From: Azolla caroliniana
Lineage: Eukaryota > Plantae > Polypodiophyta
Direction: 5' to 3'
Length of the DNA stretch: 64,000 nucleotides
Assembly: GCA_043228905.1 (NCBI GenBank)
Contig: JBHGNT010000012.1
Coordinates: forward strand, 20,026,001-20,090,000
Part shown: positions 1,752 to 64,000 of the stretch, in pieces
Layout: every line of letters starts with the position of its first letter
Numbering within the stretch: the first letter of the stretch is position 1
Made by a program: the position numbers and the translations under genes
The notes under the pieces: model-generated
The model's database searches: none
Told to the model about the DNA's origin: nothing
What the model saw: only the letters and a program-made list of their open reading frames with translations

Positions 1752-1778
1752 GTCTCTCTCTGTCTCTCTCTGTCTCTC
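1675..1778. repeat. (CT)n/(CTGT)n microsatellite in the 5' leader/promoter of the TFIIIC-like gene
   Basis: Seen directly; reads GA-rich on the sense strand. Confidence 0.95.
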
Positions 1779-1785
1779 GTTCCAC

Positions 1786-1806
1786 AGGTCGCAGGTTCGA
1801 ATCCTG
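1786..1806 (+). promoter_or_regulatory. Isolated Pol III B-box / tRNA T-arm fragment (AGGTCGCAGGTTCGAATCCTG)
   Basis: Exact GGTTCGAATCC at 1794-1804, with CAGG/CCTG stem and an AGGTC variable-loop-like lead-in. No A-box is visible upstream. Confidence 0.6.
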
Positions 1807-9900: not shown

Positions 9901-10139
9901 GTTTTGATTTCCTGCACGTATATATATGTAGGTATATGTATATGCTGCATTGCTGTAGCTCGTTTTCAAAAGCTTCAAATTCTTTTCTCAGAGAGTGAGA
10001 CACACACTCTCTCTGTCTCTGTCTCTGTCTCTCTCTGTCTCTCTCACGCACAAACAAATGGAATGGAATGATTCTCTCTCTCGCTTGGCTCAATAGCTAT
10101 GGATCTTCTCATCACATAGATCCTCACTGTATTCACTCA

Positions 10140-19602: not shown

Positions 19603-19940
19603 ATGCATGCAACCCAAGAGGGAACAACACTACCTTGTGTCTCTTCCCATCCTACACACACACACACACACACACACATCACATCACATATATAGTTGTA
19701 CCCACACCCCCCCCCCCCCCCTTCATTGTCTCCTAAGTAGCCCACATTCTCTTCACAATCATCATTTTCTTCTTCTTATTCTTCTTTTTCACTACTACAC
19801 TCTTTAGTTCCTCTACTTGTCCCCATTGTTTCTTCTTCTTCTTCACTACACACTCTTTAGTTCCTCTACATTGTGTCCCCATTTGTTTGGCCTCATCATT
19901 AGCATATATTCTCTCTATCTTAGGCTACTACAGTACACCA

Positions 19941-35300: not shown

Positions 35301-38300
35301 AAGACATCTAAACACCTTAACCATTTTACAAAGGTTTGTCGGTAAGCCTAGATAAAAGTGACGATGCTTAACACCAATCAAGCATGGGTAACGAGGTTAG
35401 AACCAGAATTTTTTGGACAGGAAAAAGATATGCACAATCCTACACATACCTAGAAATAACATTTATATGGCCTGAGTTCTCCTTATGGGAAGCTGCTTGT
35501 GCTTGACTTTCTCGTGGATATGCAGCCTTTGATTCTCTTGAGAGACAACGTGCACATTATCCGTAGAACATGAGCATCGTGCGGATTTTCACAGGAATAA
35601 ATTATGACTAAGCTATTGCGAGCTTTCTTAAATGCATGAAAGGTTTCCTCTTCTAATAGCATGATCTGTAATTCAAACACTGATGCCATACTCTAAAACT
35701 CCAATCAAATTTATTACAATTAACTAATCCATGAATATAAGGTATAATACCCTTTCAAGCTTTTGTTTGAGTATAGTAGACTCTTCAAGCTCATCATCAT
35801 CCAAAATTCTGCGGAGCCTTTTACGTCGTCTCTCATTTGTTCTGCATAAGACAATACAGATCACCAAATAGAAGGCATGTATATAAGAGACAGATATCCA
35901 TAAAATATTAGCCCAAATGCATCATGTTGCAAAACTTTCATCATCACTCTTAAACATTAACAGATAATGCAAGCTCTCGTAACATCTGTGAGGGGAACAA
36001 TGCTATCTTACATGCGTACTACTTATCCCATATATCGTGATGGCCTAGAATTCGTAACATACACACTATTTAAGAGGCAACACCTAACTGAATGAATAGC
36101 AGATGGCCTAAACTATTTTAACTCTGTGTGTGGCTAGCGATACTCCTCCATATCAAGTTTCAGATCTCAAAAACCCTCCATCAACTGTTAGTCCGTCACT
36201 AATACACGCATACAATGACCTTGCTTTATCGAAGGCAAAAACTCATATGTGAATACTGATGTTCTTGGTGGTTTAACAGCATTCACAATATCAACTACAA
36301 GTAGCATTCTCAGTGGTACAACCAAATCAAGCTATTGAAAATCAATTAAACAGTATTCTGATTCTCATTCAACATTTGGACAGTAAGAAACCCCAACATC
36401 TATCCATACCTCAATTCAAAATGATCATCATCATCCAAACCACCAAAGTTTGATGATGAAAGCTCATTTGCTTTCCTGAAAGATTCTATTTTAGGCTTCA
36501 TTACTTCATTATTGCAGCAGTAACATATCCATTCTTCGGTAGACATAATTCTTTCAAGCTCCCCTGCCCCAAAATTGAGGGTTATGCATTCACTACAAAA
36601 AACTTTATCACAGTGTTCACACATAATTACATTTCCACCGCATGCACACCAGCAGCATTCATTATATGATCCCGTTGAATCCTGCAAAAGACAAGGTATG
36701 TGATAAAGCTTTATAAATATATAAAGAACTCCAACACTTTATGAATTAAGCAATAAAATATCCACTTTTAACCTTAGTAAATCGAGCCTTTGAATATGAC
36801 TGTCTGCAAGACCGGCAAACAATAACAGATAAAAAAGGGTGCTTGTGCACCTGATGACAGTGTAACTTCTCGCCACAAACTGTACACATGAAGTCTGTGT
36901 CCCCCTCTTTAGAAATGATGGCAAGAGCATTACCATCTTGGCATAAATTGAAGCCATGTGGGACAATTGCAAGTTCTCTGCTTACTTCAATGTCCTTGCA
37001 GAAAGACTTCCCTTTATTATCAATCTCCATTGGAAAATTACTCATACCCATAGATGTTCTAGTTTTGTGTACACCATTCTCATCTGGGAAACTAAATTGA
37101 TTTCCTTCTTGGCAATATGCTGGTTTCCTTACTTCTTTTGGAACTTGCTCTTCATCACTCTCAATGTTGATGATAATTCTGTCGTTTCTCAAACAGAAAC
37201 TGGAATCTTCACCTGTTTTGCACATTTGTGATGGTTCCTGCAGAACATCCTAATTCAAGAACAGAAACCTTAAGAGCATATAAAAGCATCACACTTTCTT
37301 ATTCACTGCCATTTGTCTAATATTGCCTAACATATACCATTTGTGAGAGCTTGACACCTCCATTTGATGCAGCGTTTGAAGCCTTGGTCTGCTCATTAGC
37401 ACCTTCATCAAACTTTTTTTGAGAACAAATTAGATTAGCTATTTTTACCAAAAACTCAAGCAGTTACCAAATCATACAAAGGCTTTCAAACCTTAGTTTT
37501 CTTCTTCCGCTTGCGCTGCAATATAAAACGGTCGATTATTCTTGTTTTCTTGATATCCTCCTCTTCCCCAACCTGTCAGAAATTATTCATTGCATGATAA
37601 CCGTAAGCAAACAATGTTTTAACACTCATATACATATCAAAAGACAAGAGGTTAAACATATACTTTTCATATACCTTCCGGATATTTCTTTTTTGTTGCT
37701 CTGTAAATCCAATTTCCTTTTCACTGGCTATGGCTGCCGCAGTAAGAAAGTCTTTCTTACACTTATCCAGGTCTATTATTTCTTCTACCTGCAAAAGAAC
37801 ATGCAAAAAACTAATAAGTTTTGCACATAAACAAAGTTGCACAACATTTTGGTTTGCAAAGTTATCAATCAATTTTCCACATTAACTTTGAGAGCAATTT
37901 GTAGCAATTAAATTCAGAAAAAAAAAATCACAGATAATCAACTGTCCTAGCGATCCACAAGCAAGCAACATAAAGGGGATGGAATGAATGAGTTAAATAA
38001 CTGTATCATCAAAAGCCACACATATACATACATCATCAATCCTTGTTAGACAAGCTCCATTAATAAATAAAGGCATCCCTAATGGTGGGGGTTGAATCCG
38101 GAAATATATATATGCATAGTTGCTATTGCAACTGAAATGTAAGGGATCAACATTGGCAGAAATGGGGAGAACATGATCCCAAATGTTAAAAATGAGGTTC
38201 CTTTTTATTAATACACTGCTCATACAACCTTCAAAATAGCTAAGATACATGTCAAATTTATAGAAATGCATTGATCAAGGAGACAAAGAAGAAAAATCAT

Positions 38301-45283: not shown

Positions 45284-48200
45284 TGTAAAGAAAGGAGAGT
45301 AGTTTCTGGGACCTTTGGGCTCCCTGGCTAGATTGTATGCAACAAAAGGATCGTGTGTGTGTGTATGTATGCAACTGAGAGAATGAGTGAGAGAGCTCTT
45401 TAACCAAGAGGACTGTATATTATCATCCAACAGAATACATCCACTAGTAACAAAGTTACAAAATGTTGGTTTAAATACCAACTAAATTAGGGCAAAGACC
45501 CTTTCTACTATTTACAAAACTAGCCCGGTATTTCCATGAGCTAGTGTGAAACCTATTCCTATGGGAAGTTGAGTTCGATTCTCAACACGCCCCTTCGAAC
45601 ACAACTTCCGGGTTTTTGAAGAGTTATTTCGGATCGGTCTTTGGAACACTTCGAATTTCGATTATTCAGTTTTTCCAGTTGCGTACTCCTTGTTCGGCTT
45701 TGATCAATCGATCGATTCACTGTTTTGTACTCCCCCTCAAGCTCGACTGGTCTAGAATAGATAGGCCAAGGTTCGTCGCGAACTGCCAAAGCTTGTCGAT
45801 ACCCAAGGCTTTCATGAAAATGTCGGCTACCTGTAAATTTGTGCTGATGTGTTGAAGTCGATATCTCTGGCCTGCACGTGTTCGCAAATGAAGTGGTAGT
45901 GCACTTCGACATGCTTAGTCCGCGCGTGGAATACGAGGTTCCGTGCTAGGTAGATATTACTCATGTTGTCGCAGTATAGACGAATAAGATCCTTCATTAT
46001 ATGCTTGAGCCATACGGCTTTGCACGCAGCGACCGTCGCGCCCCTGTATTCGGCCTCCGTGCTCGACAGTCCAACTGTCGGTTGCTTCTTGCTACTCCAT
46101 CAGATTGCTCCGTTGTCGAGGGAGAAGACAAATCCTGATGTTGACAGTCTATTAACAATCAACAATGATTTGGTTCGGTTTGAGAGGGTCCAAACCGAAC
46201 TATTTAAATTTTTTGAAACTTGAACCGAACCAAAATGAACCACGAAACTGTTAAACCTTTTTCAAACCTTTAAACCATTCAACCGTAAAAACCGCGGTTT
46301 CGTGGTTCGGTTTCGGTTTTCAACATAGGTCAAATTTTATTTTATTTTAAATTGATAATATTTCATTTTAATTTTTTTTTAAGATGTTCCTAAAATGTGA
46401 GAATAAGGTCTACAAATGAAAAGTTTGTTTAAAAACAATTTATATATTTTTTTTTTAAATTATTATTTTTTAAAAACAAATAAATAAAGAACCATTTAAA
46501 CCACGTTTTTTAACAGTTGAAACCGAACCGAACCGTTGAAACCATTAAACCGTGGTTTAGCAGTTCGGTTCAAACCGAACCGTTGCCGATTGTTACCGTC
46601 TATCCGCTTTATAACCTGCCCAACCTATGTTTGTGTACCCTTCGAATCGAATTGGTGTGGTCAATGCGTAAAGGATGACGTAATCCATTGTGCTCCTCAT
46701 GTATTATAATACTCGCTTAGTGCAATCGAAATGGATATCTCGCAGAGTTTGCACAATTTGGCTAAGTAGGCCGACTGAATAGCTGAGTTCGGGTCCCGTA
46801 ATGGTTAGCTAGATGAGGTTGCCGATCAATTGACGATACTGAGTTGGCTCGCACTCGACTATGCCAAAATCGACATCAAGCTTGAGATTACGGTCAAGCG
46901 GGGTGGACACAGGTTTGCACTCCGTCATCCCGAACTTGTAGAGTAAGTTGAGGACATAGTGTCGTTGTGAGATCATTATCCCGATTGGTGTTCAAATTAC
47001 TTCGATGCCTATGAAGTAATGGAGCTCATGCAGGTCTTTCGTTTCAAATCTGTCAGAGAGAAGTGTTTTGACCTTGTTAATCTCAGCGAGATCCTTTCCT
47101 CTGATGACCAAATCATCCATGTATAGGATGATGACAATCGGGCTATCCGATTCGTTTCGGATGTACAGAGAATTATTAGATTTTGACATTCGAAATCCAA
47201 TTTGATGAAGATATTGTGTGATCGTCGAATGCCACGCACGTGGTGCTTGTTTGAGGTCATAGAGTGGCTTCTTGAATCGGCACACGACATTCGGATGATT
47301 GCGTGATTCAAAGCCGGGTGGTTGAATCATGTACACTTCATCCTCTAATTCCCCTTGGAGGAAGGCATTCTTTACGTCCATCTGATGGAAGGGCCACCCT
47401 TTTGTTGTTGTGATTGCAACCACGGTCTGCACAATTGTCATCTTTTCCAATGGGGCAAAGGTCTCTTCGTAGTCAACTCCATGCATTTGTGCGTATCCTT
47501 TCGCACCGAGCCGTGCTTTGAAGCGATTTATGGAGCCGTCAGCATTGTGTTTCACTTTGTAAATCCATCTACAGCCAATCGCCTTCTTGTGCGGTCAGTG
47601 GGGGACAAGATCCCATGTCTTGTTTTTGGAGAGTGCTTGCATCTCCTCATTCATCGCTTCAACCCATCTGGGGTCCTTCGCAGCTTCGGAAAATGTTTCT
47701 GGCTCCCGTATTGTCGCTACCTTCATCATAAAGGCGTAATGGTACGCCATATAACCGTTATAGCCACATCAACTTACGGGGTTCTTTTCTTGGGTGGACT
47801 GGCATAGCTTTTCATTCATGGATACTAAGGCTTTCTTCACTCCATTTGTCTGGATGTTGAGGCCTTCGAACTCACTATCGAGGGAGTGAGTCGATTCATT
47901 TTCGTCGAAGTGATCGTCTTCATACTCCGGCATTTTCGCCTTCCCTTTGTCCAACTTCGGACTCGGCCGAGATGTGCTTTGATCGCTCAGAGGCTCTTGT
48001 GGCCCAGTAAGCCTCGTCGTAATTGGGCTTTCTTCGAACATGCGCGTGAGCCGATCTTCGGCTTCTATCTCTATTTCGACGGATTTAGGGTTGAGCGAAA
48101 TCAGAGTCGAAGCTGTCAGTGGTGCGTACCAGGATGCGAACTCGTTGAAAACAACATCTCGAATTGTTCGAACTTTTTGGGTAGATGGATTGTAGCATTT

Positions 48201-49958
48201 GTACCCCTTTTGTTCGAGCGAGTACCACACGAGGATACATTTCTCCGACTTCGGGTCGAGCTTTTGTCACGTATCATCGAAAATATGGACATGTGATAAG
48301 TCCGACTTCTTACCAAGAAGCTTCTCATTAGGGGTTGTGTCGTGTACTCCCGAGGTTGTGCACCTGTTCATGAGGTATATGACCGTGTTCGCCACTTTTG
48401 CCCAATATGATTTCGGCAAGTTCTTCTTGTTCATCATTGCCCGTGCAACCTCTACTATGTGCCGGCTCTTCCGCTCGGCTACGCCGTTTTGTTGAGGTGT
48501 GTGACGGCATGAAAATTCTCGTCGGGTTCCTTCCTTTTGGAGATACGCCATAAACTCATCCGAGAAATATTCTTTGCCTCCATTTGATCGAAGGTAGTGT
48601 ACGTGCCGACCCGTAGATTTTTCGACTTCCTTTGAACCTCTGGAAGTGTCTGAACACTTCGCTCTTCTGTCTCATCGGGTAGATCCATGTGTGCCTGGAG
48701 AAGTCGTCGATGAACGTGACGTAATATCGGCATCCGCCGAGTGTGGTTGTCTAGGACGGTCCCTATACATCTGAATGTACGACATCCAGGATCCCTTTGC
48801 TCACATTCCGCTCTTTCGGGAATGGATGTCGGTGTTACTTTCCGAACTAGCACGCTTCGCATACGCCTGTAATCTCCTTCTCGCTAAAGTTCGGGAGTTT
48901 GATTACAACTCCTTTCAATTGCATGTTCTGAAGCTTCTGGAGGTTGATGTGGCCAATTCTCTTGTGCCACAAGTTTAGGTCGGTTTTGACTTTGAGGCCC
49001 TTTGCAAACATGGCCGATTTTACCTCGTTCGATTTGAGGATAAACATACGGCCTTCACGATGGCCATGAGCTATGACTCGATCACCTCTTTCGATAAAAC
49101 ACCCATCATTGTTGAATCGTACTTTGCATTCCTTGTTCGATAATCGGGCCGACCGAGACCAGTTTTTCGTGATGGTAGGAACATGTAGTATGTTCTTGAG
49201 GTAGGTTTGTTCGTCGTCGTTTCCGAATGGGACTTTCCCGATATGCTATATTGGATGAGTCGTGTCATCACCTATCTCGACATATCCGGGACGTTCCGTT
49301 TTTTGTAATTCTCGAAACCAATCTTCATGAGACGTCATGTGGTTAGATGCTCCTGAGTCAACAAACCATACATTCTCTGAGGGCGTGGTGCTTGTTTCAC
49401 CTTGTGTCGCCATTGAGTGCACTTTGTGCCTCATCATGAACATTCCGCTACGATCGTCGTAGTCGGGATTCGATGCGTAATTCCTGAGTTGTCGGTTGGT
49501 TGAAGCCGACTCTCGCTTCTTCTTTCGACACTCCTCTTTGCAGTGACTGAGTTTTCCGCAATATCCACATTTGATTGGGTTATTATGATTTCTTGGTCTG
49601 GCGTGATGACTCCCCCTTCTGCTGAACTCTCTGGGATTGTTCCTGTCCGCTTGCCATTGGTGGGAGTTATGCTCTTGGGTCTGCCGACAGTGATGACCTT
49701 GTCTGAATTGAGCTCTATTTCCACGACCGAAATTTCTTCTAACATCCGATTGTGTGTAGAGCATATGACCCTCTGGTGCGTTGCTCCTTTGTCAGACGTG
49801 ATTTTCCTCGACCAACAATATTGACTGGAGATTGGAAAAGGTGGGAGGATTCTCTCTCGCGAGGACGACAGACCTTATTGCGCTGAATCGAGGTGTTAAG
49901 CCTCTGAGGCATATCTGCACCATTTCTTCGTCGTCAATGCCAACATTGATCGACCCAA
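45284..49958 (-). mobile_element. Decayed Ty1/Copia retrotransposon (partial gag-PR-IN-RT-RH, PPT, 3' LTR 45587-45284); 5' part displaced by a nested Gypsy
   Basis: UBN2-like gag, zinc knuckle CGYCGKLSHCKEEC, WFVDSGASNHMT, LWHKRIGH, TPQQNGVAERK, RFKARL..KGYAQ, QMDVKNAFLQG, LYMDD and RNase H WAG...RRSTSG, with many frameshifts. PPT GAAGGGGCG precedes TGTTGAGAAT...CTTTACA. Confidence 0.93.
46153..46595. mobile_element. hAT-type MITE inserted in the Copia RNase H
   Basis: TIRs TAACAATCAACAATGATTTGGTTCGGTTTGA / TCAAACCGAACCGTTGCCGATTGTTA; 8-bp TSD CAGTCTAT/CCGTCTAT. Removing it restores WAGYKADRR|STSGFVF. Confidence 0.88.
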
Positions 49959-52900
49959 TGTTATTGCTAGGGCCGGACAACAACCTAACACAGGGTGTCC
50001 ACTTAAGACACGTCACCAAAGGGTGGTACGACAGAATGACTTACGGCTCAACGCTTAATTAGACCTTAATCGATTACTTAGCCATCCGTAATTAACACGT
50101 GTAAGATATAACAATAAACACAAAACGGTAATCAACACTTGAAGATTAAGACAATACGCTTTATTAATTATCCGCTCCTGATTACATTGTAACCGAGCCT
50201 TTATATAGGTCTCCGATGCGAAATACAAAACGGTGTCAAACAGCACCTTTACGGAATCGTTCCAGATCCAGATCGGCACACCGATTCTGGTTCGTCCATC
50301 CACATCTTCTTATATAATAATATGTATATAGTAAGACTACTAATTACAACAGTTCCCGAATAACTATTCCTTTCACACTCTGGTTTGGACCTCCTTAAGC
50401 CTTCTTCGTCGGCCGGTAACACATGGCACGCCCGTGGGATAGTACCTTGTACGTCGAACCCACTATCCGGCCCTTTTACGCTTCGTCCAAAATGTCCAGA
50501 ATGCTTTGCTCCAAAATTTCCAATGGCTCGTCGGGAATCTGTTGTTCCTGATGTGGTTGTTGTTGTTGTTGTTCCGTTTGTGGCTGTGGCTGCTGCTCCG
50601 TTTATCGCTCTGGCACCGGTGTTTCCGTCGTTGGTTCCTCCGTCGGAGTTGTTTGTGGCTGACTAACCCCGGCATGTTCCCCCTCCTGTCTTTGCGCCGA
50701 CGACGGTTCCTCATCACTAAGGTTGACCGTTGTCGCTTTTCGCGCTTTTTCTTCTCGGAGCCGGGATCGCTCATAGCTTTCAAACTGGATTTGAGCCTCC
50801 AACCGATCATCGTCCAGTTGAGCTACGAGCTATCGGACCTGCACCAATTGTTCATCCGCCAGCTCCTCCCTGATGGTGGTGAAGTCCTCCAAGGTCAGCA
50901 TATAGCAGTCGTCGCCCTCCTTTCGCCGGTTTTCAACGTCCGCCCTAAGCAATTGGAGTTCCGCGGTATTCTACGCCCATTTTGCCCACCAACGCACACA
51001 ACTATCATCAATCAAGCTTTTGGTTTTAGTGAGCCATGACCGGAGGATGCACTAGATCCGTTCGGCTCCCATCTGTGATTTATTTTCTGCGGCTTGTCGC
51101 TCTTCCTTCAACTACTTGATGATTTGAACCGTGTCCACCTCCTGCTCCCTATAATGCGACAATTGAGTTTGATAGGTTGTTTGCAACCTTTGTAGTACCA
51201 TTGTTGCTCTTTCCTTGTCTTCATGGTTCTGTTTGTGGAGCTCCATCCGGTCATTCGCCGCTTCCTCCAATAGCCTGGAACTTTCCGCTCGTTCTTCGGC
51301 GAGTGCCATTGTGGCCTTATCAACCTCTTGCCAGAGCTCGGCCATCCGTTGTTGATGCTCCGTCTCCAGCTGCTTGTAGTCCCGATGCAGATGATCAAAA
51401 TCATCAGTCTTCTGCTTCAGCCTTTGGTTTATCTGACGGCGCGCGCGGTCCTCCCGGTTCTTCTGTTGCCGGAGCTCTTCCTTCAGCCGCTCAATTTCCG
51501 TTTCCGCCATCCGTCGCAGCTTGTCTTTTTCCTGCAGCACTTTCTCTTTTTCCTCCTTCAGCCGGTTGTAAGCATGATGTCCTTTACGCAGGTTTTCCTC
51601 TGCATGACGAAGGTTCTCAACAATCTTTCTTAATTCTTCTTTGGCCGCCTTCTTCAAGTCGCGTTCGCGGCTCCGTAATGCTTCTTGTGCGGCTAGCTCA
51701 TCTCGTAATTCTGCACGCTCTTGGGCTTGCGCCGCCTCTTTCTCTGGGACAGTTTGTGTCTCCGGGGTCTTATTCTTCTGTACATCAACCGGAGTCACCG
51801 GTGCTTGGACCTACGTTGCGGTTAAGGCCATTTTGGCCATATCTCCTGTGATATGATCCAAGTCTTGTTCGAGGCACCGGACCCTTGACCGGGCCGTCTC
51901 CAGTTCATCGGTTGTGACGAGCAACCGTTCCGTTTGCGCTCTTTCCTCCGCCTCTATGCATCCGACTACTCCGGAAATTTGGTCTCCTATCCACCGGACC
52001 ATTGGCTACCGGTGCACTATTGTTGCGCTTGTATGGAGAGTTGGCTGATGGGTTCACTCGCCGGTGGCTGGTCCCGCCTTTCTGCGTCAAGCTGCGCTTC
52101 TGGTTCTGCCAGCTGACCACTTTGCCGTTCCGGCTCTGAGTGTGTTTCATCTAGTCGCCCGTTGTCTGCTTGTTCTTGGTCGGCTGGGGCGGTTGGCCTT
52201 TGTATCTCCGGCTCTTGGGTGACGGGCCTTGCCGGTGCAGCCTGTTGTGTCAGGACTTCTGTGACCGGTTCCATCCAAACCGGTTCCGGTGCCTCCCTTG
52301 GCGTGGGTTGCTCAACGTGAGTTGCGGGTGTTCCATCCTTCTGTGGGTCCGAACGTTTCCCGGTTGATTCTGCGGTGCTCTTCACCGGCCGCCGCTTGAG
52401 GTGCTCCGTGGGTTCTTCCTCCATCTCTTCCGCCTGAGTCCCGACATTCATTCTTGCCGCCAAGGTGTCTATTTCCTGTTGCGCTAGTCGGTGGAGTGGG
52501 CTCTTCAAGGCCCGTGCCGGTGTCTCCTCATGCGTGTCTGTCGGTCGCTACCGGCCGGCGCGCTCCTTCGCCGCCTTCTCTGCTTCGGTAGTCTTCCCCT
52601 TAGTGGCCTTGGAGGCCAACAGTTGTTGCCGTTTCGAAGCAAGTTTCGGGGTGCCATCCGTTGCTCTTCCCCGCTTCTTGGTTTGGATGGGCTCGACCGA
52701 TGGCGTCAACAGGGTGAGCCATTGTGTCACCGCATGCCATACTTTCCGGCCTTCCTTGCCGTCCTTTCCCCTTACTATATCAATGGCCGTACACAGCCCG
52801 TCGGCGATCAGCACCGGCCAATCTACCTTGACCCCTTCGTACGTTGCGATGATCAAGCCTGCTCGGTTTTGAGGCATGACGGGGGGTCGAGGGTACACGT

Positions 52901-54046
52901 GGCCGAACTCGTGGAGCACATGGGCAATTTCCCGGAATAGCATATCTTCGCCGCCATGTGTCCTATAGCCCTTGCTGGCTAGAGAGTACTCATCGAAATA
53001 TTTGATGAGTTGCTCGGAGGTAGGATTGTCGATCGTGTAGATACCGCCCTCCGGAAGGCCTATTAACGCATGGATCGCCTCCTCCGTGATCACCTCCGTG
53101 TCGATTTATTTTATAATCTTCTCGGCCTCCTTGTGTGGTGCTGCCTCCATGATCGTTAAGAAACCCTCCAGACCGTGTTGTCGTAACCATTTCTTGGCGG
53201 CTTCAGACAACGTTTGGCAGTCCATCTCTGCGTCGAGGTCGGAGAGCGTTGGAGAGGTTTGATGGTGGGGAGAATGTGAGAGAGAAAGTTCTGAGGGAGG
53301 GGGTTCTTTGTGTGCGAGCTCTCTACGATTTATCTTCACGCGTCGCTCTGCGTCTGTTCTCCTTGGTTCGCGATAGGAGAAGGTCTCAATGCGTGGGGGT
53401 TTTTCTCTCTGCATCTTGGCGCCTTTTTCGAGCCTCCGCATGTGCATGTCGTGTACTATAATAGCATTGCGTGCCATGTGGCGGTGGTTTAATGTCCTAT
53501 TCATAGCTCCTCGTACCTTTTCGACGTGCCTCTTTACTCCACGTGTGCATGGCCGTTTCCACCACTCCTTTCCATGATTTATTTGATTCGCTCCTTTATT
53601 CTCTTCTATTTTTTTCTTTCTTTTTATTATTATTTAAAACTTACTTGTGTGGTTAGTTTTTCTCCGGTCTTGTCGGACCTTTGCCCGAAATGTGCAACTC
53701 GCCGGCCTCTTGTCGGTTTGTCGTCGTTCTGCTCTCCTCGGTTGTCGGCTCATGCTCCTCCTTACTGGCTTGGTGGTAGTCGTCGTCTTCATCGGTTGCC
53801 GTTATGGTTGGCCTGCCGACATCTAATTCGGTGGCGGCCCTTCGTTCAAATGGGTTCTTAAGCATAGGTCCTTTGTATGGTTTTAATCTAAATCTGTTGA
53901 CCCATTTGCCCAACACTTCTCCGGCAAGTGTCCCCAACTGGTAGGACCCATTGAACTCGCGTGTGATCCAGTACGGTCCGGTCCATCTAAACCGTAGTTT
54001 ACTTGGCATTTTGCCCATCCGGGTCTGGAACACGAGTACCGGCTTG
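49959..54046 (-). mobile_element. Athila/Tat-like (non-chromovirus) Ty3/Gypsy 3' half: integrase C-terminus, long extra ORF, 3' LTR (~50351-49959)
   Basis: KLRFRWTGPYWIT...GSYQL..L.GE.LGKWVNRFRLKPY (GPY/F integrase tail). TG at 49959 lies exactly where the Copia gag breaks; minus-strand TATATAAA near 50200. The inner LTR boundary is uncertain. Confidence 0.75.
50602..53504 (-). pseudogene. Frameshifted extra ORF of the Gypsy element (PMD/Transposase_32-like N-terminal part, P/E-rich linker, coiled coil)
   Basis: Consecutive same-strand ORF pieces 53504-53106, 53093-52548 (ITEEAIHALIGLPEGG; GVKVDWPVLI), 52508-52017, 52002-51811, 51798-51112 (heptad-rich) and 50802-50602. Confidence 0.6.
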
Positions 54047-54387
54047 TGTCATGGCAAGACTCGAACCCATGACCTTATGCTACATGGGTCGAGGTCTTAC
54101 CATTAGACTATACATTATAAGTTGTAGGATATTATTTTCATTTATGTTTTATTTTAGAAATTGATGTATATTCCAGATTTCTCTGGAACATTCTAGAAGC
54201 TTCAGGATTACTCTTAGAAATACTATAAAAGAGGGCACTAGGCGTTATGTTGAACCAAATTGGTTCAACGCCAGTCTTAAGCCTTCTAGCCACAGTTGTA
54301 CATTCTCTTCACGTAATACATATATTCCTCTCCCTCTTATCTCTCCCCTTTCCTACTAGTCTCTTAATTCCTCTTCTCTTTCATCCC

Positions 54388-55587
54388 ATGGCCACTGTTA
54401 GCGCTGAAGAATATCAATCCGTTTTTTCGGAGTTTCAATGTTTGAAGGAGAAATTTCATGCTTTGGAACAAGAAAACCAACGGTTGCTGGGGGATCTTCA
54501 ACAAATCTCCTTAGAAAAACAGCAAACGCAGCAACAGCATGGGGAACTTGCGTTACGCGTACAACAACTCGAAGCAACCATCGTGGCGATGCAACAACAC
54601 GGGCCCGCAACACAAGGAACTCATAAAGAACCCAAGATTGGCCTTCCCACGAAGTTTGATGGAACGCGATCGCAGTTTAGAGGGTTCCTTAATCAGGTAC
54701 GACTAGTTATTCAAATGCATCCTTGTCGATATCCCACCGATGCATCACGAGTGGGTTTAGTAGGAACTTTATTAAGTGGCTCAGCGTTGGCGTGGTTCGC
54801 TCCCCTATTAGAAAAGGAATCCCCGTTGCTCAATAATTTTGAAGAATTTATCGGTGAGTTTAAAGCATGTTTCGGAGATACTGACAGCATCAGAACCGCA
54901 ATCAACAAAATTCGGCGATTACGTCAAGGTGATCGTCCAGCCTCCGCATACGCTGCAGATTTTCGCCTACTCGCCGCCGATATTCCTTGGGATGATCAAG
55001 CGTTAATGGAGCAATTCCGTTACGGTTTACGCAACGATGTCAAGGATTTACTCTTGACCTTCCCCGAAGAGCCGAAGTCCTTAACAGAAGCAATTAGTCG
55101 CGCGGTAAGATGCGACAACCGTCTATTTGAGCGTCGTTCGGAACGACAACTACAGATGCCGAGGGCAAGATCGGAGCCCACCTACGCCTCAGTGACATCA
55201 AGACCTTTTCCGAGGGAGTCATACCTTGCACCTCCAGCGAATACTCCGACTCCGATGGAGATTGACACAACACGTCGTCGAGGGCCATTATCCGAAGAGG
55301 AAAAGCAGCGACGTCGTACAAATCGACTATGTCTTTACTGCGGTGGACCAGGACACATTGCAATAAATTGTCCCCATAGGCCAAAAAGGCAGGTAAACCA
55401 AATTACTGCTAGTACTAATAGTACTAAACCTGAGTCTATTGCCTTAGCTACGCATGATAGTTTTAACAGTACTAAAACCGAGTCTATTTCCCTAGGTGTG
55501 CATGATAGTCCTAATAGTACTTACAGTCCGAACCTAGCAAACAAATTTGATGTCCTTAGTCAGTTAGAAGAAGAGTTAAACGACTAA
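54388..55587 (+). CDS. gag: Gag (PEG10/Tcn1-like capsid plus CCHC zinc knuckle), chromovirus A
   Basis: MATVSAEE...EPKIGLPTKFDGTRSQFRGFLNQV...LRQGDRPASAYAADFR...PTPMEID...CLYCGGPGHIAINCP. Confidence 0.9.
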   Translation: MATVSAEEYQSVFSEFQCLKEKFHALEQENQRLLGDLQQISLEKQQTQQQHGELALRVQQLEATIVAMQQHGPATQGTHKEPKIGLPTKFDGTRSQFRGFLNQVRLVIQMHPCRYPTDASRVGLVGTLLSGSALAWFAPLLEKESPLLNNFEEFIGEFKACFGDTDSIRTAINKIRRLRQGDRPASAYAADFRLLAADIPWDDQALMEQFRYGLRNDVKDLLLTFPEEPKSLTEAISRAVRCDNRLFERRSERQLQMPRARSEPTYASVTSRPFPRESYLAPPANTPTPMEIDTTRRRGPLSEEEKQRRRTNRLCLYCGGPGHIAINCPHRPKRQVNQITASTNSTKPESIALATHDSFNSTKTESISLGVHDSPNSTYSPNLANKFDVLSQLEEELND

Positions 55588-57490
55588 GTCCAGCCAAAAT
55601 AGGAGCCGTTTGGTTGGACAGCCCTAGATCTGTGCAGCCCACTAGTGGTTCCATTTCCTCTAAGCAAGTTAGCAATGTGTTCGTAGCCCAAGTAGCCGTT
55701 AGTACTAAAAGTACCCCTCCAGTACATGTCTTAGCACTCCTAGATTCCGGAGCAAACTCTTGCTTTATGGATAAGAATTTTGCCCAAGCTCATCAGATAT
55801 CTCTTAGAAAACTCTCGTGTCCAGCCTCCGTAGTAGTCATTGATGGTCGTCCCATTGCTTCCGGAAATATCATAGAAGAATCAGAGCCCGTTAATGTTGT
55901 CCTAGATAATCTAGCATGTGTAATATCATTTAATATAATTAGTATTCCAGAACATCCCATAGTTTTAGGATTACCATGGTTTGAGTTACATAACCCAGAC
56001 ATAGATTGGAGGACAAGGAAAATTCAGTTTCGACAAACCCAAGGATCTACCCAGAAGATTGCAACCATTTCACTACATCAGTTGCGTGAGGAAGGGCACA
56101 AGGAGGACATGTTTCTCTTCGCAATATCAGTACAACCCTCCAGCACCACCAAAGAGGAGTCCATCGTTCAACTTCCCGAGAAGTATCGTCAGTATGCTGA
56201 TGTGTTCGATAAAATACAAGCCAACACACTTCCTCATCATCGACCGTACGATTGCCCCATCGATCTACAACCAGGAAAGGAGCCGCCATGGGGGCCAATC
56301 TACAATTTGTCACCTACGGAGCTAGAAGTCCTTCGAGCCTACATAGAGGAGAATTTGGCTAATGGTTTCATTCGGCATTCAAAATCTCCCGCAGGCGCAC
56401 CTATTTTCTTCGTCAAGAAGAAGGACGGATCTCTTCGCCTTGTTGTCGACTATCGTGGCTTAAATAAAGTCACCATCAGGAATAGGTATGCACTGCCCCT
56501 TATCTCAAGTCTTTTAGAACGGATCAATGGTGCCAGGTTCTTCACGAAGATCGACTTACGAGGAGCATATAACCTCGTACGAATTCGACCAGGAGACGAA
56601 TGGAAGACGGCGTTTCGTACTAGATACGGGCACTTCGAGTATACAGTCATGCCGTTCGGTCTCACTAATGCGCCGGCAGTCTTCCAGCACATGGCAAACG
56701 ATATATTCCGAGACCTGTTGGATAATTTTTTGATCATCTACTTGGATGATCTATTGGTTTATTCGAAGACCCAGGAAGAGCATGATTCTCATGTACTATC
56801 AGTACTAAAACGACTTCGAGAACATGGTCTGTATGCAAAACTAGAAAAATGTAGTTTCGGGTGCAACCAGGTGGAATTTCTCGGCTATGTCATCTCCTCA
56901 GAAGGCATCTCCATGGACCCAGCTAAAGTCAAAACGGTGGTGGATTGGCAGACTCCGCGTTCGGTGCGGGATGTGCAGTGTTTTCTAGGCTTTGCCAATT
57001 TTTACCGGAAGTTCATACAAGATTACTCAAGGATCGTTCTGCCTCTCACACAGCTTACCAGAAAGGGGCAAGCGTTCATTTGGTCTGAAGAAACAGACTT
57101 GGCTTTCGAGAATCTGAAAAAGGCGTTTACATCAGCTCCAATTCTGGGTCATGTCGATCCAGAAAAACCATTCATTATCGAAGCTGACGCATCGGATTTC
57201 GCATTGGGGAGCATTCTGTCACAACATGGTAATGACGAGAAGCTACATCCTGTGGCTTTTCATTCACGAAAGTTTGACGCCGCCGAAATCAACTACGAGA
57301 TACATGATAAGGAACTCTTGGCAATAGTGGATTCATTTATGCAATGGAGGCATTTCCTAGAGGGATCCCCTCACCCAGTCACTGTATTCAGTGACCACAA
57401 GAACCTTGCCTACTTTCAGGATGCTCGTGTGCTGAATCGACGTCAAGCCCGGTGGGCCCACTTCCTCACACGTTTCGACTTCAAAATTAC
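55575..57490 (+). CDS. pol: Pol (protease, RT, RNase H; integrase deleted), in the -1 frame relative to gag, chromovirus A
   Basis: LLDSGA, YLDD, ADASDFALG, YEIHDKELLAIV; the frame is open upstream across the gag stop. Confidence 0.88.
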
Positions 57491-57772
57491 TCTTAGAAAT
57501 ACTATAAAAGAGGGCACTAGGCGTTATGTTGAACCAAATTGGTTCAACGCCAGTCTTAAGCCTTCTAGCCACAGTTGTACATTCTCTTCACGTAATACAT
57601 ATATTTCTCTCTCTCTCTGTCTCTCTGTCTCGCTCACTTCTTCCTTCTCTCTCAAGAAGTTCTACACCCCTCATAGTACTAATCCTTCGTTTAGTACTAA
57701 TCCCTTCTCTGTAGTACTAATCCTTCGTTTAGTACTAATTCCGTCTCCGTCTTACTACTGATTCCTGACAGT

Positions 57773-58440
57773 CCCTCTCACTCGTTCCTTCTCTCAACGT
57801 TCTACACCTCTCATAGTACTAATCCTTCTCTGTCTTAGTACTGTTCTCAACAATTGTACTAATCCTTCTTTTAGTACTAATTCCTTCTCCGCCTAGGTAG
57901 CGTTCCTGACAGTTTGAACCGATTTGGTTCGAACTAATGCCTTGCGCCTCCTTTTATAGTGTCTTCAGGAATACTCCTGAAGTTTCTAGAATGTTCCAGA
58001 GAAATCTGGAATATACATCCATTTCCTAATAAAATATAAATGAAAATAATATACTTCGAATTACAATGTATAATATAACGGTAAAGACTCGACCCATGTA
58101 ACAACAGGTTATGGGTTCGAGTCTAGTTATGACACTTTTCAGGAGTATTCCTGAAGACACTATAAAAGGAGGCGCAAGGCATTAGTTCGAACCAAATCGG
58201 TTCAACGCCAGTCTTAAGCCTTCTAGCTGTTATTGTATATTTTCCTTCACCTAATACATATATCCTTCGTATCATCATTCTCTCTCTTTCTCTCTCTCTC
58301 TCCCTCTCACTCGTTCCTTCTCTCAACGTTCTACACCTCTCATAGTACTAATCCTTCTCTGTCTTAGTACTGTTCTCAACAATTGTACTAATCCTTCTTT
58401 TAGTACTAATTCCTTCTCCGCCTAGGTAGCGTTCCTGACA
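57773..58440. mobile_element. Scrambled LTR fragments of chromovirus B: U5 piece (+, 57773-57911), inverted U3 piece (-, 57914-58134), R-U5 piece (+, 58138-58440)
   Basis: By eye, each piece is identical to the corresponding part of 58138-58440 or 62709-62919, and each ends in TGACA. Confidence 0.88.
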
Positions 58441-59128
58441 GTGTTAGAACCGCCATCAACAAAATCCGGAGATTGCGCCAAGGTGAGCGGCCGGCCTCAG
58501 CTTATGCTGCGGACTTCCGTCTTCTTGCCAGCGATATTCCCTGGGATGACCAGGCATTGATGGAACAATTTCGCTTTGGCCTACGGAATGATGTTAAAGA
58601 TCTACTCTTAACTTTCCCCGAAGAGCCAAAATCATTGACCGAAGCAATCAGTCGTGCGGTGCGATGCGATAACCGCCTCTTCGAACGACGCTCGGAACGT
58701 CAGTTCCAAATGCCAAGGACAAGATCGGAGCCTACCTATGCTTCAATCGTAGCAAAGCCTTTTTCAAGGGAGTCCTTCAGTACATCTCCAACGAATACTC
58801 CGACTCCAATGGAGATCGACACCACACGTCGTCGCGGACCACTATCGGAAGAAGAAAAGCAGCGACGCAGGGCACATCGACTATGTTTGTATTGCGGGGG
58901 ACCAGGGCATATTGCAGTAAACTGTCCCAATAGACCAAAAAGACAGGTAAACCAAATAATTGCCTGTACTAATAGTACTAAACCCGAGTCTGTTTCCCTA
59001 GGTGTGTCTGATAGTCTTAATAATACTAAAACTGAGTCTACTTCCCTAGGTATGCATGAAAGTTCTAATAGTACTTATAGTCCAAATTTAGTCAACAAAT
59101 TTGATGTCCTTAGTCAGTTAGAAGAAGA

Positions 59129-62100
59129 GTTAAACTATTAAGTCCAGCCAAAATAGGAGCCGTTTGGTTGGACAGCCCTAGATCTGTGCAGCCCATTAGT
59201 GGTTCCATTCCCTCTAAGCAAGTTAGTGATGTGTTCGTAGCCCAAGTAGCAGTTAGTACTAAAAGTACCCCTCCAGTACATACCTTAGCACTTCTAGATT
59301 CCGGAGCTAATTCTTGCTTTATGGATAGGAATTTTGCCCAAGCCCATCAGATATCCCTCAGTAAGCTCCCGTGTCCAGCCTCAGTAGTAGTCATTGATGG
59401 TCGTCCCATTGCTTCTGGGAATATCATAGAAGAGTCAGAACCTGTTAATATTGTCCTAGATAACTTAGCATGTGTAGTGTCGTTTAATATTATTAGTATC
59501 CCAGAACATCCCATAGTTTTAGGATTACCATGGTTCGAATTACACAATCCAAACATAGATTGGAGAACAAGGGCAATCCGGTGTCGACAAACCCAAAAGA
59601 CAATGGCAACCATTTCGCTACATCAGTTGCGTGAAGAAGGGCGCAAGGAGGAGATGTTCCTTTTCGCAATATCAGTAAACCCCTCCATCACCACTAAAGA
59701 AGACAGTACTGTTCAACTCCCCGAGAAGTATCGTCAGTACGCTGATGTGTTCGATAAAGTACAAGCCAACACACTTCCTCATCATCGGCCGTACGATTGC
59801 GCCATCGACTTACAACCGGGAAAAGAGCCGCCATGGGGGCCGATCTACAGTTTGTCACCAACCGAGCTAGAAGTCCTTCGAGCCTATATAGAGGAGAATT
59901 TGGAGAACGGTTTCATTCGGCATTCGAAATCTCCAGCCGGCGCACCCATTTTCTTCGTCAAGAAAAAAGATGGCTCGCTTCGACTTGTTGTAGATTACCG
60001 TGGCTTGAATAAGGTTACAATAAGAAATAGGTATGCTCTTCCCCTTATCTCAAGTCTTTTAGAACGAATCAATGGTGCCAGGTTCTTCACGAAGATCGAT
60101 TTACGAGGAGCCTATAACCTCGTACGAATCCGACCAGGAGATGAATGGAAGACCGCGTTTCGCACCAGATATGGGCACTTCGAGTATACGGTCATGCCGT
60201 TCGGACTCACTAATGCGCCAGCAGTCTTCCAGCACATGGCGAATGATATATTTCGAGATCTATTGGATGATTTTCTGATCATCTATTTAGATGATCTACT
60301 GGTTTATTCAAAGACCCAAGAAGAACATGATTCTCATGTACTATTAGTACTAAAACGACTTCGAGAACATGGGCTATATGCAAAGCTAGAGAAATGTAGT
60401 TTCGGGTGCAACCAGGTGGAATTTCTCGGATATGTCATCTCCTCAGAAGGCATCTCTATGGACCCAGCTAAGGTCAAAACGGTGGTAGAATGGCAAACTC
60501 CGCGTTCGGTGCGGGATGTGCAGTGCTTCCTAGGCTTTGCAAATTTTTACCGGAAGTTCATACAAGACTACTCAAAAATAGTTCTGCCTCTCACACAGCT
60601 CACCAGGAAAGGACAATCATTTATCTGGTCTAAAGAAACGGACATGGCTTTCGAGAGTCTTAAGAAGGCGTTCACATCAGCTCCAATTCTAGGTCATGTG
60701 GATCCGGAACAACCATTCATTATCGAAGCTGACGCATCTGATTTCGCATTGGGGAGCATTTTGTCACAACAGGGTAATGACGAGAAGCTGCATCCTGTGG
60801 CTTTCCACTCCCGTAAGTTTGACGCCGCCGAAATCAACTACGAAATTCACGATAAAGAGCTATTGGCAATAGTTGATTCTTTTATACAGTGGAGGCATTT
60901 TCTCGAGGGATCTCCTCATCAAGTCACTGTATTCAGTGACCACAAGAACCTTGCCTACTTTCAAGATGCTCGTGTACTGAATCGACGTCAAGCTCGATGG
61001 GCCCACTTCCTCACACGCTTCGACTTCAAAATTACATATCGTCCGGGGAAGCACCAAGGGAAGGCAGATGCATTATCACGACGTTCGTATCTAACACCAC
61101 GTCCCGGGGAGCCAGCTTTCGATAACCAGAAGCAAGTAATCTTGGGACCAGCACGACTACAAGGAGCACAGGTCTTTGACATGCCCATGGACTCTGACGT
61201 CACCAATACTATACGTGAGGACTTGAAGACTGACGCCTTCGCCCAAGCTATACTAGCACAAATTGACCCCTGTCGAGCGTCATGTTCACAGTCACAACCA
61301 CCAGGTACTGACTATCGGCAATTTAAATACTGTGATGGATTACTCTTCTTTAAAGAACTTTTGTATGTTCCTAATGATTCTTGCCGCCTTCGAGTAGTAC
61401 AAAACTGCCATGACACATATACAGCAGGACATTTCGGTAGTACTAAAACATTAGATTTAGTACAACGATCATTCTGGTGGCCCCGTATGCAACAATTTGT
61501 CAAAGATTTTGTTCGGACTTGTGACACCTGTTGCAGAGCGAAAATGCCAAGGCATCATCCATATGGTTTATTAGAACCATTACCAATTCCAAGCAAGCCA
61601 TGGCAATCCATTGCTCTCGACTTCATCACAGATCTTCCAGTCTCTAAGGAGTTCAACGCGATTCTAACAGTGGTGGATCGATATACGAAGATGGCTCATT
61701 TCTTACCATGTACTAAGGAAATATCTAGTGAAGACACCGCCGAAATTGTCATGCGGGAAGTATGTCGGCATCATGGACTTCCCGATAGTATCATTAGCGA
61801 TCGTGGACCCCAGTTTGTATCCAAATTCTGGAAGCACCTTTTTAAGATGCTCAAGGTGACTTGTAACCTCTCCTCCGGCTACCACCCACAAACCGACGGT
61901 CAAGCCGAACGAACAAATCAAACATTGGAGCAGTATCTGCGGTGCTTTCTCAGCTATCATCAGGATGACTGGGCAGATATTCTTCACTTCGCCGAATTTG
62001 CCTATAATAACGCTATCCACGCATCGACTAAAGTTACGCCATTCTATGCTTATACGGGATGTCATCCCCGGTGGTCTGTCCTTGAAGTCCCAGAAGTGTC

Positions 62101-62716
62101 CACAAATCCGTGCGCGGAGGATCGTTTGGAGCGATTACGCAAGATACAAGAAGATTTATCTACTCAACTCCAGCATGCTCAACAATCACACAAGGACTAC
62201 GCAGATCGTCATCGACTTCCATCCAGTTTTAACATTGGGGATCGGGTGTGGCTGCTACGACGACACATCAAGACTACTCGCCCATGTGAAAAATTGGATT
62301 ATCGGCGATTAGGTCCTTTCCGTATTATCGGAAAGATTAATGATGTCGCTTTTCGTCTCGATCTACCTCCGCAACTTCGGATACATCCGGTATTTCATAG
62401 TTCCCTCCTTGAACCTTATCACGAGAGCACTATCCCAGGACGGATTACACAACCTCCACCTCCTATCGAGCTTGAAGATGGACCTGAGTATGAGGTTGCT
62501 GCTATCCTTGATTCCAAGATTGTTCGCAATAAGCTCTACTATCTAGTCGATTGGCTAGGGTATAGTCCCAGCAAGCGTACTTGGGAGCCGATCGAGAACG
62601 TGACCAATGCTCGTGCTCTTCTTGAAGACTTCCATCGTCGATATCCAGAGAAACCGGGTCCTCAATCTAAAACGACTCGTGGAACTCGTCGTTTTAAAGG
62701 GGGGATAGTGTCATAA
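59129..62716 (+). CDS. pol: Intact Pol polyprotein: protease, RT, RNase H, integrase, chromodomain
   Basis: 1182-aa ORF with LLDSGA, YLDD, HHCC (HDTYTAGH...CDTC), ALDFITDL/ISDRG/QAERTN (DDE), GPF, and chromodomain YEVAAILDSKIVRNKLYYLVDWLGYSPSKRTWEP. The stop lies inside the 3' LTR. Confidence 0.95.
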   Translation, partial: VKLLSPAKIGAVWLDSPRSVQPISGSIPSKQVSDVFVAQVAVSTKSTPPVHTLALLDSGANSCFMDRNFAQAHQISLSKLPCPASVVVIDGRPIASGNIIEESEPVNIVLDNLACVVSFNIISIPEHPIVLGLPWFELHNPNIDWRTRAIRCRQTQKTMATISLHQLREEGRKEEMFLFAISVNPSITTKEDSTVQLPEKYRQYADVFDKVQANTLPHHRPYDCAIDLQPGKEPPWGPIYSLSPTELEVLRAYIEENLENGFIRHSKSPAGAPIFFVKKKDGSLRLVVDYRGLNKVTIRNRYALPLISSLLERINGARFFTKIDLRGAYNLVRIRPGDEWKTAFRTRYGHFEYTVMPFGLTNAPAVFQHMANDIFRDLLDDFLIIYLDDLLVYSKTQEEHDSHVLLVLKRLREHGLYAKLEKCSFGCNQVEFLGYVISSEGISMDPAKVKTVVEWQTPRSVRDVQCFLGFANFYRKFIQDYSKIVLPLTQLTRKGQSFIWSKETDMAFESLKKAFTSAPILGHVDPEQPFIIEADASDFALGSILSQQGNDEKLHPVAFHSRKFDAAEINYEIHDKELLAIVDSFIQWRHFLEGSPHQVTVFSDHKNLAYFQDARVLNRRQARWAHFLTRFDFKITYRPGKHQGKADALSRRSYLTPRPGEPAFDNQKQVILGPARLQGAQVFDMPMDSDVTNTIREDLKTDAFAQAILAQIDPCRASCSQSQPPGTDYRQFKYCDGLLFFKELLYVPNDSCRLRVVQNCHDTYTAGHFGSTKTLDLVQRSFWWPRMQQFVKDFVRTCDTCCRAKMPRHHPYGLLEPLPIPSKPWQSIALDFITDLPVSKEFNAILTVVDRYTKMAHFLPCTKEISSEDTAEIVMREVCRHHGLPDSIISDRGPQFVSKFWKHLFKMLKVTCNLSSGYHPQTDGQAERTNQTLEQYLRCFLSYHQDDWADILHFAEFAYNNAIHASTKVTPFYAYTGCHPRWSVLEVPEVSTNPCAEDRLERLRKIQEDLSTQLQHAQQSHKDYADRHRLPSSFNIGDRVWLLRRHIKTTRPCEKLDYRRLGPFRIIGKINDVAFRLDLPPQLRIHPVFHSSLLEPYHESTIPGRITQPPPPIELEDGPEYEVAAILDSKIVRNKLYYLVDWLGYSPSKRTWEPIENVTNARALLEDFHRRYPEKPGPQSKTTRGTRRFKGGIVS

Positions 62717-62830
62717 CTAGACTCGAACCCATAACCTGTTGTTACATGGGTCGAGTCTTTACCGTTATATTATACATTGTAATTCGAAGTATATTATTTT
62801 CATTTATATTTTATTAGGAAATGGATGTAT

Positions 62831-62891
62831 ATTCCAGATTTCTCTGGAACATTCTAGAAACTTCAGGAGTATTCCTGAAGACACTATAAAA
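62831..62891 (+). promoter_or_regulatory. Heat-shock element array plus TATA box in the chromovirus LTR (also at 54171-54230, and inverted at ~57950-58012)
   Basis: In-phase nGAAn/nTTCn units TTC-GAT-CTC-GAA-TTC-GAA-TTC-GAG-TTC-GAA, then TATAAAA at 62885. Confidence 0.75.
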
Positions 62892-62919
62892 GGAGGCGCA
62901 AGGCATTAGTTCGAACCAA

Positions 62920-63019: not shown

Positions 63020-64000
63020 ACACGTGGCCAGCATTTCACTATAGTAGTATTTTATCGATCAATTGGTCCGATTTGTTTGCACACACATTCAAGGGTGCGT
63101 ATCGCGTGTAACATTCATTCACACACACACACACACATATGAGAGTGTCTCTACTAGAGAACTTGCTTTTTGGCTAATGAAACAAGAAACCCAAAAGAAA
63201 GAAAAAGAAAAAATAAAATAAAATAAAATAAAGAAAAAGTGGGGGAGGGGGAGGGGGAAAAAACAAAGAAGTGTGACGACAATGCTGACATCACTCTCTG
63301 ACAGATAATACAGAAATAATAATAATAATAAATAATCAATTTCAATATTTTCTTTTTCTTTTCTCAAAAACAAAAACACAAAAAGCAATAAATGGTAATA
63401 AAATTGCCGGTGCTGACGTGGCGGGCGACCGCGCCGCCGCCAGCATTTAATCGAGGCTGACGTGGCGCCGCCCGGTGACGTCAGCGGGGCCACGGCACGT
63501 GCCCCCATTCAAAAAGAAAATAATAATAACAAATAAATTTAGTTTCGTATTTATTTTCGTTTCCTTTTTTCTTATCGTTCTTCCTCTCTGTCTCTCTCAT
63601 TTATTTTTTTGTTTTATTTTTCCGCCTTCTTATTTTTTATTGGACGGTTTTGGGTGCGACTCGAACCACCGACCTTCCTCTCTCTCCTCTTCGTTCATAA
63701 CAATGTTTTTTTTTTCACTTTTTTTTGTTTTTTTTTTTTTTTGCTTTAAATTTTAATAAGACCATATATTCCCATGGTTTTGTTTCGGGGATCAGGACTC
63801 ATGTGTCCATTTTTACATGACCCACAAAAGTGTTCATGTTTTCCGACAATTGCTCTTATATAACACTCGGACAATTCATATTGACCGACACATTAGCCGT
63901 CCTTTGATCTTATATGGCTCCCGTGTCCTAATATAACCTTTGTAAAAAGCATTGATGTCAGAAGTTTTATGTTTGACTCTTAAGCACCCACGAAGGGTAC

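Follow-up and report, generated by a model that had tools for sequence, protein, structure and literature searches.

Why should a Gypsy retrotransposon carry, at the start of its long terminal repeat (LTR), a tRNA-like promoter module that faces backwards? The question is posed by LTR-A of the window (the whole stretch of DNA analysed here, 64,000 nucleotides long), where the original prediction had read the minus strand of 54047-54117 as an A-box, an AGGTC segment and a B-box in tRNA spacing. The letters match that reading, and the three parts were found in this spacing at 54110-54100, 54075-54071 and 54067-54058:

54047..54117, minus strand: very probably tRNA-derived module (tRNA positions 1-72), antisense to the element, at the U3 5' end of LTR-A
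54100..54110, minus strand: A-box (positions 8-19)
54071..54075, minus strand: variable-loop segment AGGTC (44-48)
54058..54067, minus strand: B-box (positions 52-61)

Because the module points outwards, it cannot make genomic RNA, and since a backwards promoter cannot drive the element, it would be retained for some other reason.

We scored A-box, B-box and spacing with matrices built from 370 tRNAs of viral contigs only; viral-contig tRNAs matching the search pattern were removed before matrix building, which avoids circularity. With these matrices the LTR-A module reaches 26.1 bits, compared with a median of 24.6 for real tRNAs, and none of 200 dinucleotide shuffles equals it. No other A-box/B-box site on either strand of the 64-kb window scores as high; two LTR-B copies follow at 21.5 bits, and the best unrelated site has 12.8. 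The original prediction had staked its case on a similarity to tRNAs, and one was found: a profile made from 14 modules alone gave 49 matches at E<=0.1, 47 of which fall on real tRNAs in the same orientation, tRNAs covering 12% of the loci searched. In locus L009 the top Rfam match of the module is a tRNA (15.8 bits, E 0.4, under the gathering score), while the L006 module has no Rfam tRNA match. Likewise, Rfam gave no tRNA match at E<=10 for the window module with queries of 551 and 86 bases, and ARAGORN called no tRNA there; with relaxed thresholds its output was noise and the module was still uncalled. As predicted, the acceptor and anticodon stems are unpaired, and no tRNA cloverleaf was detected. 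By its sequence likeness, we consider the module very probably tRNA-derived; it is no tRNA gene, a cloverleaf with acceptor and anticodon stems being absent.

The CAT-anticodon isotype was enriched among the top matches, an effect that was gone once near-copies were removed (4 of the top 20 vs 40 of 448, p 0.09). An acceptor helix in the +1 register (5/7 in L006, 6/7 in L009; p 0.015 for Watson-Crick pairs over 8 families) was discounted as one of 32 uncorrected tests. As to a SINE source, no full-length non-LTR copy was found within 456 kb. Outside the LTRs of the window, short pieces like a tRNA 3' half do occur, at 1769-1809 (plus strand, E 0.03) and at about 63645-63670, perhaps as parts of a SINE-like repeat of the host.

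The module lies within 54047-62919, a region holding parts of two Gypsy elements, A and B, that are 87% identical over 2.6 kb:

54389..55587, plus strand: gag of element A (Pfam Retrotrans_gag, Ty3_capsid)
55560..57490, plus strand: pol of element A, ending at the RNase H end and joined to mid-LTR
59114..62716, plus strand: pol of element B (protease, RT, RNase H, integrase, SH3, chromodomain)
62696..62708, plus strand: polypurine tract (PPT) of element B, at the same position in relatives
54258..54268, plus strand: predicted R start, the putative self-primer pairing with the primer-binding site
57912..57924, plus strand: putative self-priming primer-binding site (PBS), directly after the LTR end
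62709..62779, minus strand: module in the 3' LTR of element B (21.5 bits; B-box intact, A-box weaker)
57914..58136, minus strand: inverted copy of the LTR-B U3, including module 58068-58134

Judged by their coding capacity, gag plus full pol, the elements are autonomous, and one relative, L001, is complete (LTR-gag-pol-LTR). Gag and pol share 55560-55587 in element A and 59114-59141 in element B, each read in its own frame, which suggests a -1 frameshift. The order PR-RT-RH-INT with a C-terminal chromodomain is that of Tcn1-clade chromoviruses (Tf1/sushi group), and we class the elements as Tcn1-type by this order and by predicted self-priming, the references in our tree being unnamed Ceratodon and Ceratopteris proteins rather than a named Tcn1. 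A site behind the LTR complements the R start over 9-12 nt, there is no tRNA primer site, and the R start and PBS co-vary between loci (L004:4489/4647, L009:4304/4454, L018:1368/1501). The elements thus appear to self-prime, the co-variation giving good comparative support for this in plant Tcn1-type elements, and since self-priming would run through R-PBS pairing, the module would be no primer site.

LTR-B had been predicted to retain the B-box and spacing with a weaker A-box, and this holds (21.5 bits), with 0 of 10 B-box differences between LTR-A and LTR-B. Two LTR-B copies had been claimed; the one at 62709-62779 stands, but 58068-58134 does not count separately. Positions 57924-58136 are an inverted 62707-62919, 100% identical over 213 nt and ending exactly at the start of an N gap, so that the two copies amount to one observation. 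Across 57912-58136 the sequence passes from the LTR end and PBS to the reverse complement of U3, switching via PBS/R complementarity; this inversion probably arose as a fold-back in the assembly, or perhaps through a genuine template switch. Further junctions at short shared sequences occur at 57490 (pol to mid-LTR) and 58441 (LTR end to mid-gag), a region that may be misassembled or rearranged. LTR-A is apparently without U5 and a primer site ahead of gag.

Relatives were retrieved with the protein sequence of the integrase C-terminus and chromodomain, and the best 80 of 542 metagenome loci were used; chosen in this way, the sample is blind to the motif. LTR starts were placed just after the PPT. 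Among these best 80 of 542, 13 loci have the module, 4 clade loci are too short and L050 is rearranged; the remainder comprises 42 outgroup loci and 20 with no clear LTR start or forming duplicate rows. L004, a near copy of L003, was excluded from box scoring and position alignment. The clade so defined (best 80 of 542) has 18 rows, namely element B, the 13 loci with readable LTRs and the 4 that are too short, with an SH-aLRT support of 95 from a quick tree search without bootstrap.

All clade loci with readable LTRs among the best 80 of 542 carry the antisense module, in a single register under plain MAFFT alignment. On the minus strand, the 14 of 14 clade LTRs from this best 80 of 542 score 6.5-26.1 bits, equalled by 0 of 200 shuffles each; their plus strands give at most -1.3 bits. 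Outside the clade, the 42 LTR starts (best 80 of 542) score no more than 4.5 bits, and with the search widened to as much as 600 nt, 6 of these outside LTRs reach 8 bits and none 15. The spacing from G53 to the LTR end is 20 nt in the two window copies and 25-58 nt in 12 relatives; the predicted coincidence of position 72 with the LTR terminus is true of the two window copies only and is not a family feature. Clade and host are confounded, as all 13 module loci come from one assembly series, and viral contigs yielded only 2 distant relatives. Several plant DNA runs contain the window's element family in high copy number.

Outside the clade, L062:1159-1230 has a B-box-like motif at the LTR start with a possible A-box remnant (1.9 bits), which the clade module profile missed; if real, the module predates the clade. 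In L004, tRNA-spaced box matches of 15.6 and 17.8 bits lie outside the LTR on the minus strand, near 1018 and 6342, and may be due to chance.

The surroundings of the elements bear on one possible use of the module. Integration targeting of Pol III start sites by Ty3-type elements is established, and offers a precedent for regarding the module as a landing pad for integrases with this preference, elements then clustering beside existing LTRs. We hold this to be very unlikely. Upstream of the module, 11 LTRs were readable and all are uninterrupted, in a small sample in which high-coverage contigs would hide rare insertions, and no tRNA-like site of at least 14 bits was found at the 3' junctions of L001, L003, L007 and L010 or at the 5' junction of LTR-A.

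Conservation within the module is concentrated on the letters that tRNAs keep. Across the aligned modules from the best 80 of 542 loci, T8 and A14 are present in 14 of 14 and G19 in 13 of 14, and A44, G46 and T47 are conserved despite lying outside the classical boxes. In comparisons of one family with another (26 of 28 pairs, with a protein identity of 0.63), the eight tRNA-invariant positions, anchors excluded, are 0.91 identical, whereas the remaining module positions reach 0.44, fourfold-degenerate pol sites 0.36, the anticodon arm 0.35 and the flank 0.38 (permutation p 5e-5 for the box-position contrast, six families). The boxes had been expected to be more conserved than the neighbouring U3, and they are; this comparison indicates that the box positions are under purifying selection.

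The same contrast largely refutes, at the level of sequence comparison, the idea of a neutral relic, in which a leftover of an inserted tRNA or SINE, or else a fortuitous resemblance, rides along as a passenger. The window copies without any Rfam or ARAGORN match and the several single-copy modules that have decayed would fit it, but boxes 0.91 identical beside fourfold sites and a remaining module near saturation would not, nor would a U3 enhancer part that is alignable between families in patches only; of all the readings we give this one the slimmest chance. An intact B-box core was seen in all 5 high-coverage contigs but in 1 of 7 with low coverage (Fisher p 0.015), a pattern that would follow if the module is retained by transposing lineages and dead copies decay.

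Variation within the window's family was read on L001. In two DNA runs, no variant of at least 2% falls in the first 36 LTR bases, among those listed. Among variants listed for depth-weighted contigs, those at G18 stay below 0.5% in two DNA runs, and those at A14 reach 7-11%. Run X3 has variants of 19-60% at positions 9, 10, 12, 36, 39 and 41, among those listed. L002 and L046 share T54C, so that the B-box has perhaps been lost in one subfamily.

The rest of the LTR places this module back to back with the element's own putative promoter:

54118..54167, minus strand: block rich in A+T (82%) on the upstream side of the module, with a TA-rich hexamer near -38 and CAA near -6
54171..54203, plus strand: heat-shock-element-like nGAAn/nTTCn repeats, read in the sequence; other motifs in some families
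54224..54230, plus strand: putative Pol II TATA box of the element, facing away from the module

The nGAAn/nTTCn repeats are what we take to be the heat-shock-element motif. The distance between the module and the TATA box, which is on the opposite strand, is 110-190 nt in 8 of 9 LTRs; in L014 the box was not located. The predicted downstream heat-shock promoter stands for 6 of 9 LTRs, the window included, with heat-shock-like repeats upstream of the TATA box, but not for the other 3, where CATGCA motifs occur instead and the module is still present. With the heat-shock repeats swapped and the module retained, the enhancer part appears to turn over around a constant module. The U3 of L007, L009 and L018 has CATGCA and GC-rich repeats, vs heat-shock-like ones in the window, L001, L003, L010 and L014.

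On the other side, A+T accounts for 78-90% of the 50-nt stretch that lies upstream of the module, in 11 of 11 clade LTRs (best 80 of 542); at a similar place, 3 of 35 outside LTRs (best 80 of 542) have 78% or more. Plant tRNA genes are described as having a TATA near -35 and CAA at -7 to -3 (PMC3082873), a layout that LTR-A fits, no exact TATA or CAA position being common to the clade. The block may be the seat of TFIIIB.

Folding of the module adds one more part:

54047..54109, no strand assigned: long rod hairpin, in the window's subfamily only

The whole 62 nt, the 'A-box' included, fold as one rod (-32.1 kcal/mol, z -5.8). The long hairpin of the original prediction is thus present, and longer than stated, but it is not family-wide, and the paired D-arm also predicted is missing from the lowest-energy fold because the entire 62 nt pair as a rod. 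Rod hairpins with z from -2.3 to -5.5 were found in the two window copies (winA, winB), L001, L058 and L014; the signal is absent in L003, L007, L009, L010, L018, L002 and L046 (z -0.5 to +0.8). Matches of the window or L006 to Rfam microRNA families are chance ones caused by the hairpin. The consensus structure of eight family representatives has 0 pairs, and cloverleaf pairing is no better than in shuffled columns (154/500). The lack of a conserved cloverleaf makes the module look like a DNA promoter rather than a tRNA.

These data weigh on the proposal that the module is a Pol III gene whose short antisense RNA, across the U3 start and the PPT, regulates the element, which we regard as unlikely. 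Both boxes and the upstream A+T block are conserved as it would require, the rod is present in the five copies named above and, in the window's subfamily, could be cut to small RNAs, and foamy virus U3 Pol III microRNAs, as described in the available text, are a precedent (PMC3993851). G18-T54 spacing is 36-37 in 13 of 14 modules (best 80 of 542), and T20, A22, T37, A44, G46 and T47 are invariant across 6 families. Yeast TFIIIC is described as tolerating A-B spacings of 32-93 bp (PMC12409998), so that this fixed spacing and the extra invariants exceed what a two-box promoter needs; they could mean constraint at the RNA level. Against the proposal, seven relatives have no hairpin signal and the sequence that would be transcribed is saturated. 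A T4 run follows in 10 of 14 LTRs, the first one at scattered distances, and none lies within 400 nt in 4 of 14 (best 80 of 542). In LTR-B the T4 run is 37 nt past the LTR end, no terminator position being common to relatives, and an antisense RNA into the chromodomain could start only from the 3' LTR. Two runs guessed to be RNA gave low-depth contigs over the module, in which strand and start are not shown.

Distinctly less probable is a role in reverse transcription or integration, played by folded or tRNA-mimicking minus-strand cDNA or genomic RNA near the PPT. The position would suit it, as the module lies no more than 60 nt from the PPT in 14 of 14 LTRs (best 80 of 542) and the minus-strand cDNA carries the tRNA sense; the D-stem pair 11-24, present in 14 of 15 rows as UA, CG or UG, and the first 36 LTR bases of the window's family, where no variant of at least 2% is among those listed, point the same way. 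Yet no structure is common to the clade, the conserved letters are those of tRNA loops and not of stems, the distance to the LTR end varies over 20-58 nt, and priming is already accounted for by R-PBS pairing.

A-box and B-box stand at a spacing workable for a type-2 Pol III promoter, and loop letters selected without stems, together with an A+T block at the putative TFIIIB seat, are by sequence the signature of one. That the module is kept as a binding site for Pol III factors therein seems probable to us; that its benefit is promoter protection rather than an RNA product is a tentative suggestion. We propose, with similar caution and as the likeliest of the readings considered, that the antisense tRNA-derived module is a TFIIIC/TFIIIB site that could keep the element's Pol II promoter open in silenced chromatin. 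An old tRNA-derived segment would sit antisense in the LTRs of an autonomous chromovirus clade whose chromodomain would direct the element into heterochromatin; its boxes, working as DNA, would bind TFIIIC, which would place TFIIIB on the adjoining A+T-rich block, and the bound factors would keep the Pol II promoter, 110-190 nt off and oppositely oriented, open. The segment may stem from a single ancient capture of a tRNA or SINE head, spread to both LTRs through reverse transcription, either by SINE or tRNA insertion or by a switch of template to a tRNA at an early stage of plus-strand synthesis, an event that would yield the observed orientation.

TFIIIC-dependent barrier activity is described for tRNA genes and ETC sites of yeast and animals (PMC12409998), and the available text of a review of plant barriers contains no plant tDNA-barrier example (PMC9540200). 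Against a barrier, related Tcn1-type elements outside the clade manage without the module, the A-box of LTR-B is weak, and L002 and L046 have T54C. The full account, in which a tRNA gene promoter was captured once and kept by self-priming chromoviruses as a portable TFIIIC chromatin barrier in heterochromatin, is possible but rather doubtful.

Several known systems share parts of this arrangement. Helenus TRIMs/TRIMp3, as far as the available text describes them, have tRNA-derived LTR sequence, conservation centred on boxes A and B and no functional tRNA, as here (PMC10886601). Boxes within the LTR are thus common to both, whereas autonomy, priming and orientation differ: Helenus elements are short (about 0.3-1.3 kb), non-coding and non-autonomous, where the present ones have gag and full pol; their primer-binding site is tRNA-complementary, ours R-complementary; and Helenus-1_SMo and two ToGe entries have the tRNA in sense, as the likely element promoter, in contrast to antisense in 14 of 14 here (PMC10886601). 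In the same text, Kojima (2024) argued that autonomous partners of Helenus require Pol II, and reported tRNA-like pieces in 'not a few LTRs' of Repbase (PMC10886601). The arrangement had been thought undescribed; this fails for tRNA-derived A and B boxes in LTRs, published for Helenus (PMC10886601), but the open literature searched, Repbase and subscription papers being outside its scope, yielded no description of the autonomous antisense form.

Cassandra and Ajax TRIMs, in the available description, also have the Pol III promoter of a small-RNA gene in both LTRs; they are 5S-derived and non-autonomous, and the Cassandra promoter drives its element's RNA (PMC10886601). Foamy virus is, like the present elements, an autonomous retroelement with U3 Pol III promoter elements beside a Pol II promoter, but its cassettes have hairpin microRNAs and terminators, neither of which is clade-wide here, and a tRNA origin is not mentioned in the text available (PMC3993851). 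Tcn1-clade chromoviruses of non-seed plants share the lack of a tRNA primer site, predicted self-priming and group-I-like chromodomain aromatic residues, the last read by eye here; the accessible parts of these papers mention no tRNA-like LTR module, which is also absent from our 42 outside LTR starts (PMC6317226, PMC2864245). The tRNA-gene and ETC barriers likewise have TFIIIC-binding boxes adjoining silenced chromatin, but those described are yeast and animal host loci and not transposon-borne (PMC12409998).

The range of LTR Pol III promoters would be extended from tiny non-coding TRIMs, in which they are taken to drive the element, to elements of full length that have a Pol II promoter of their own. 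A barrier would offer an answer, open to testing, to how chromodomain elements remain active in silenced chromatin and, if true, would be the first transposon-borne tDNA insulator that we have found described in plants. The clade would then be a ready, high-copy natural system for plant tDNA barrier function, and a high-copy family would scatter many TFIIIC sites through heterochromatin.

Element A is itself inserted in an older, decayed, non-chromovirus Gypsy-like element (51112-54046, minus strand), and an older decayed Copia-like element lies at 46992-49791 (minus strand), both recognized by eye. Host genes occupy 1199-1816, 9999-10910, 19737-21260 and 31522-37249; they include an exon of a CDPK-related kinase, whose nearest named relative is in Ceratopteris, at 54% identity, which makes a fern the probable host. 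A VQ-motif gene and ATRX-like exons were recognized by eye alone.
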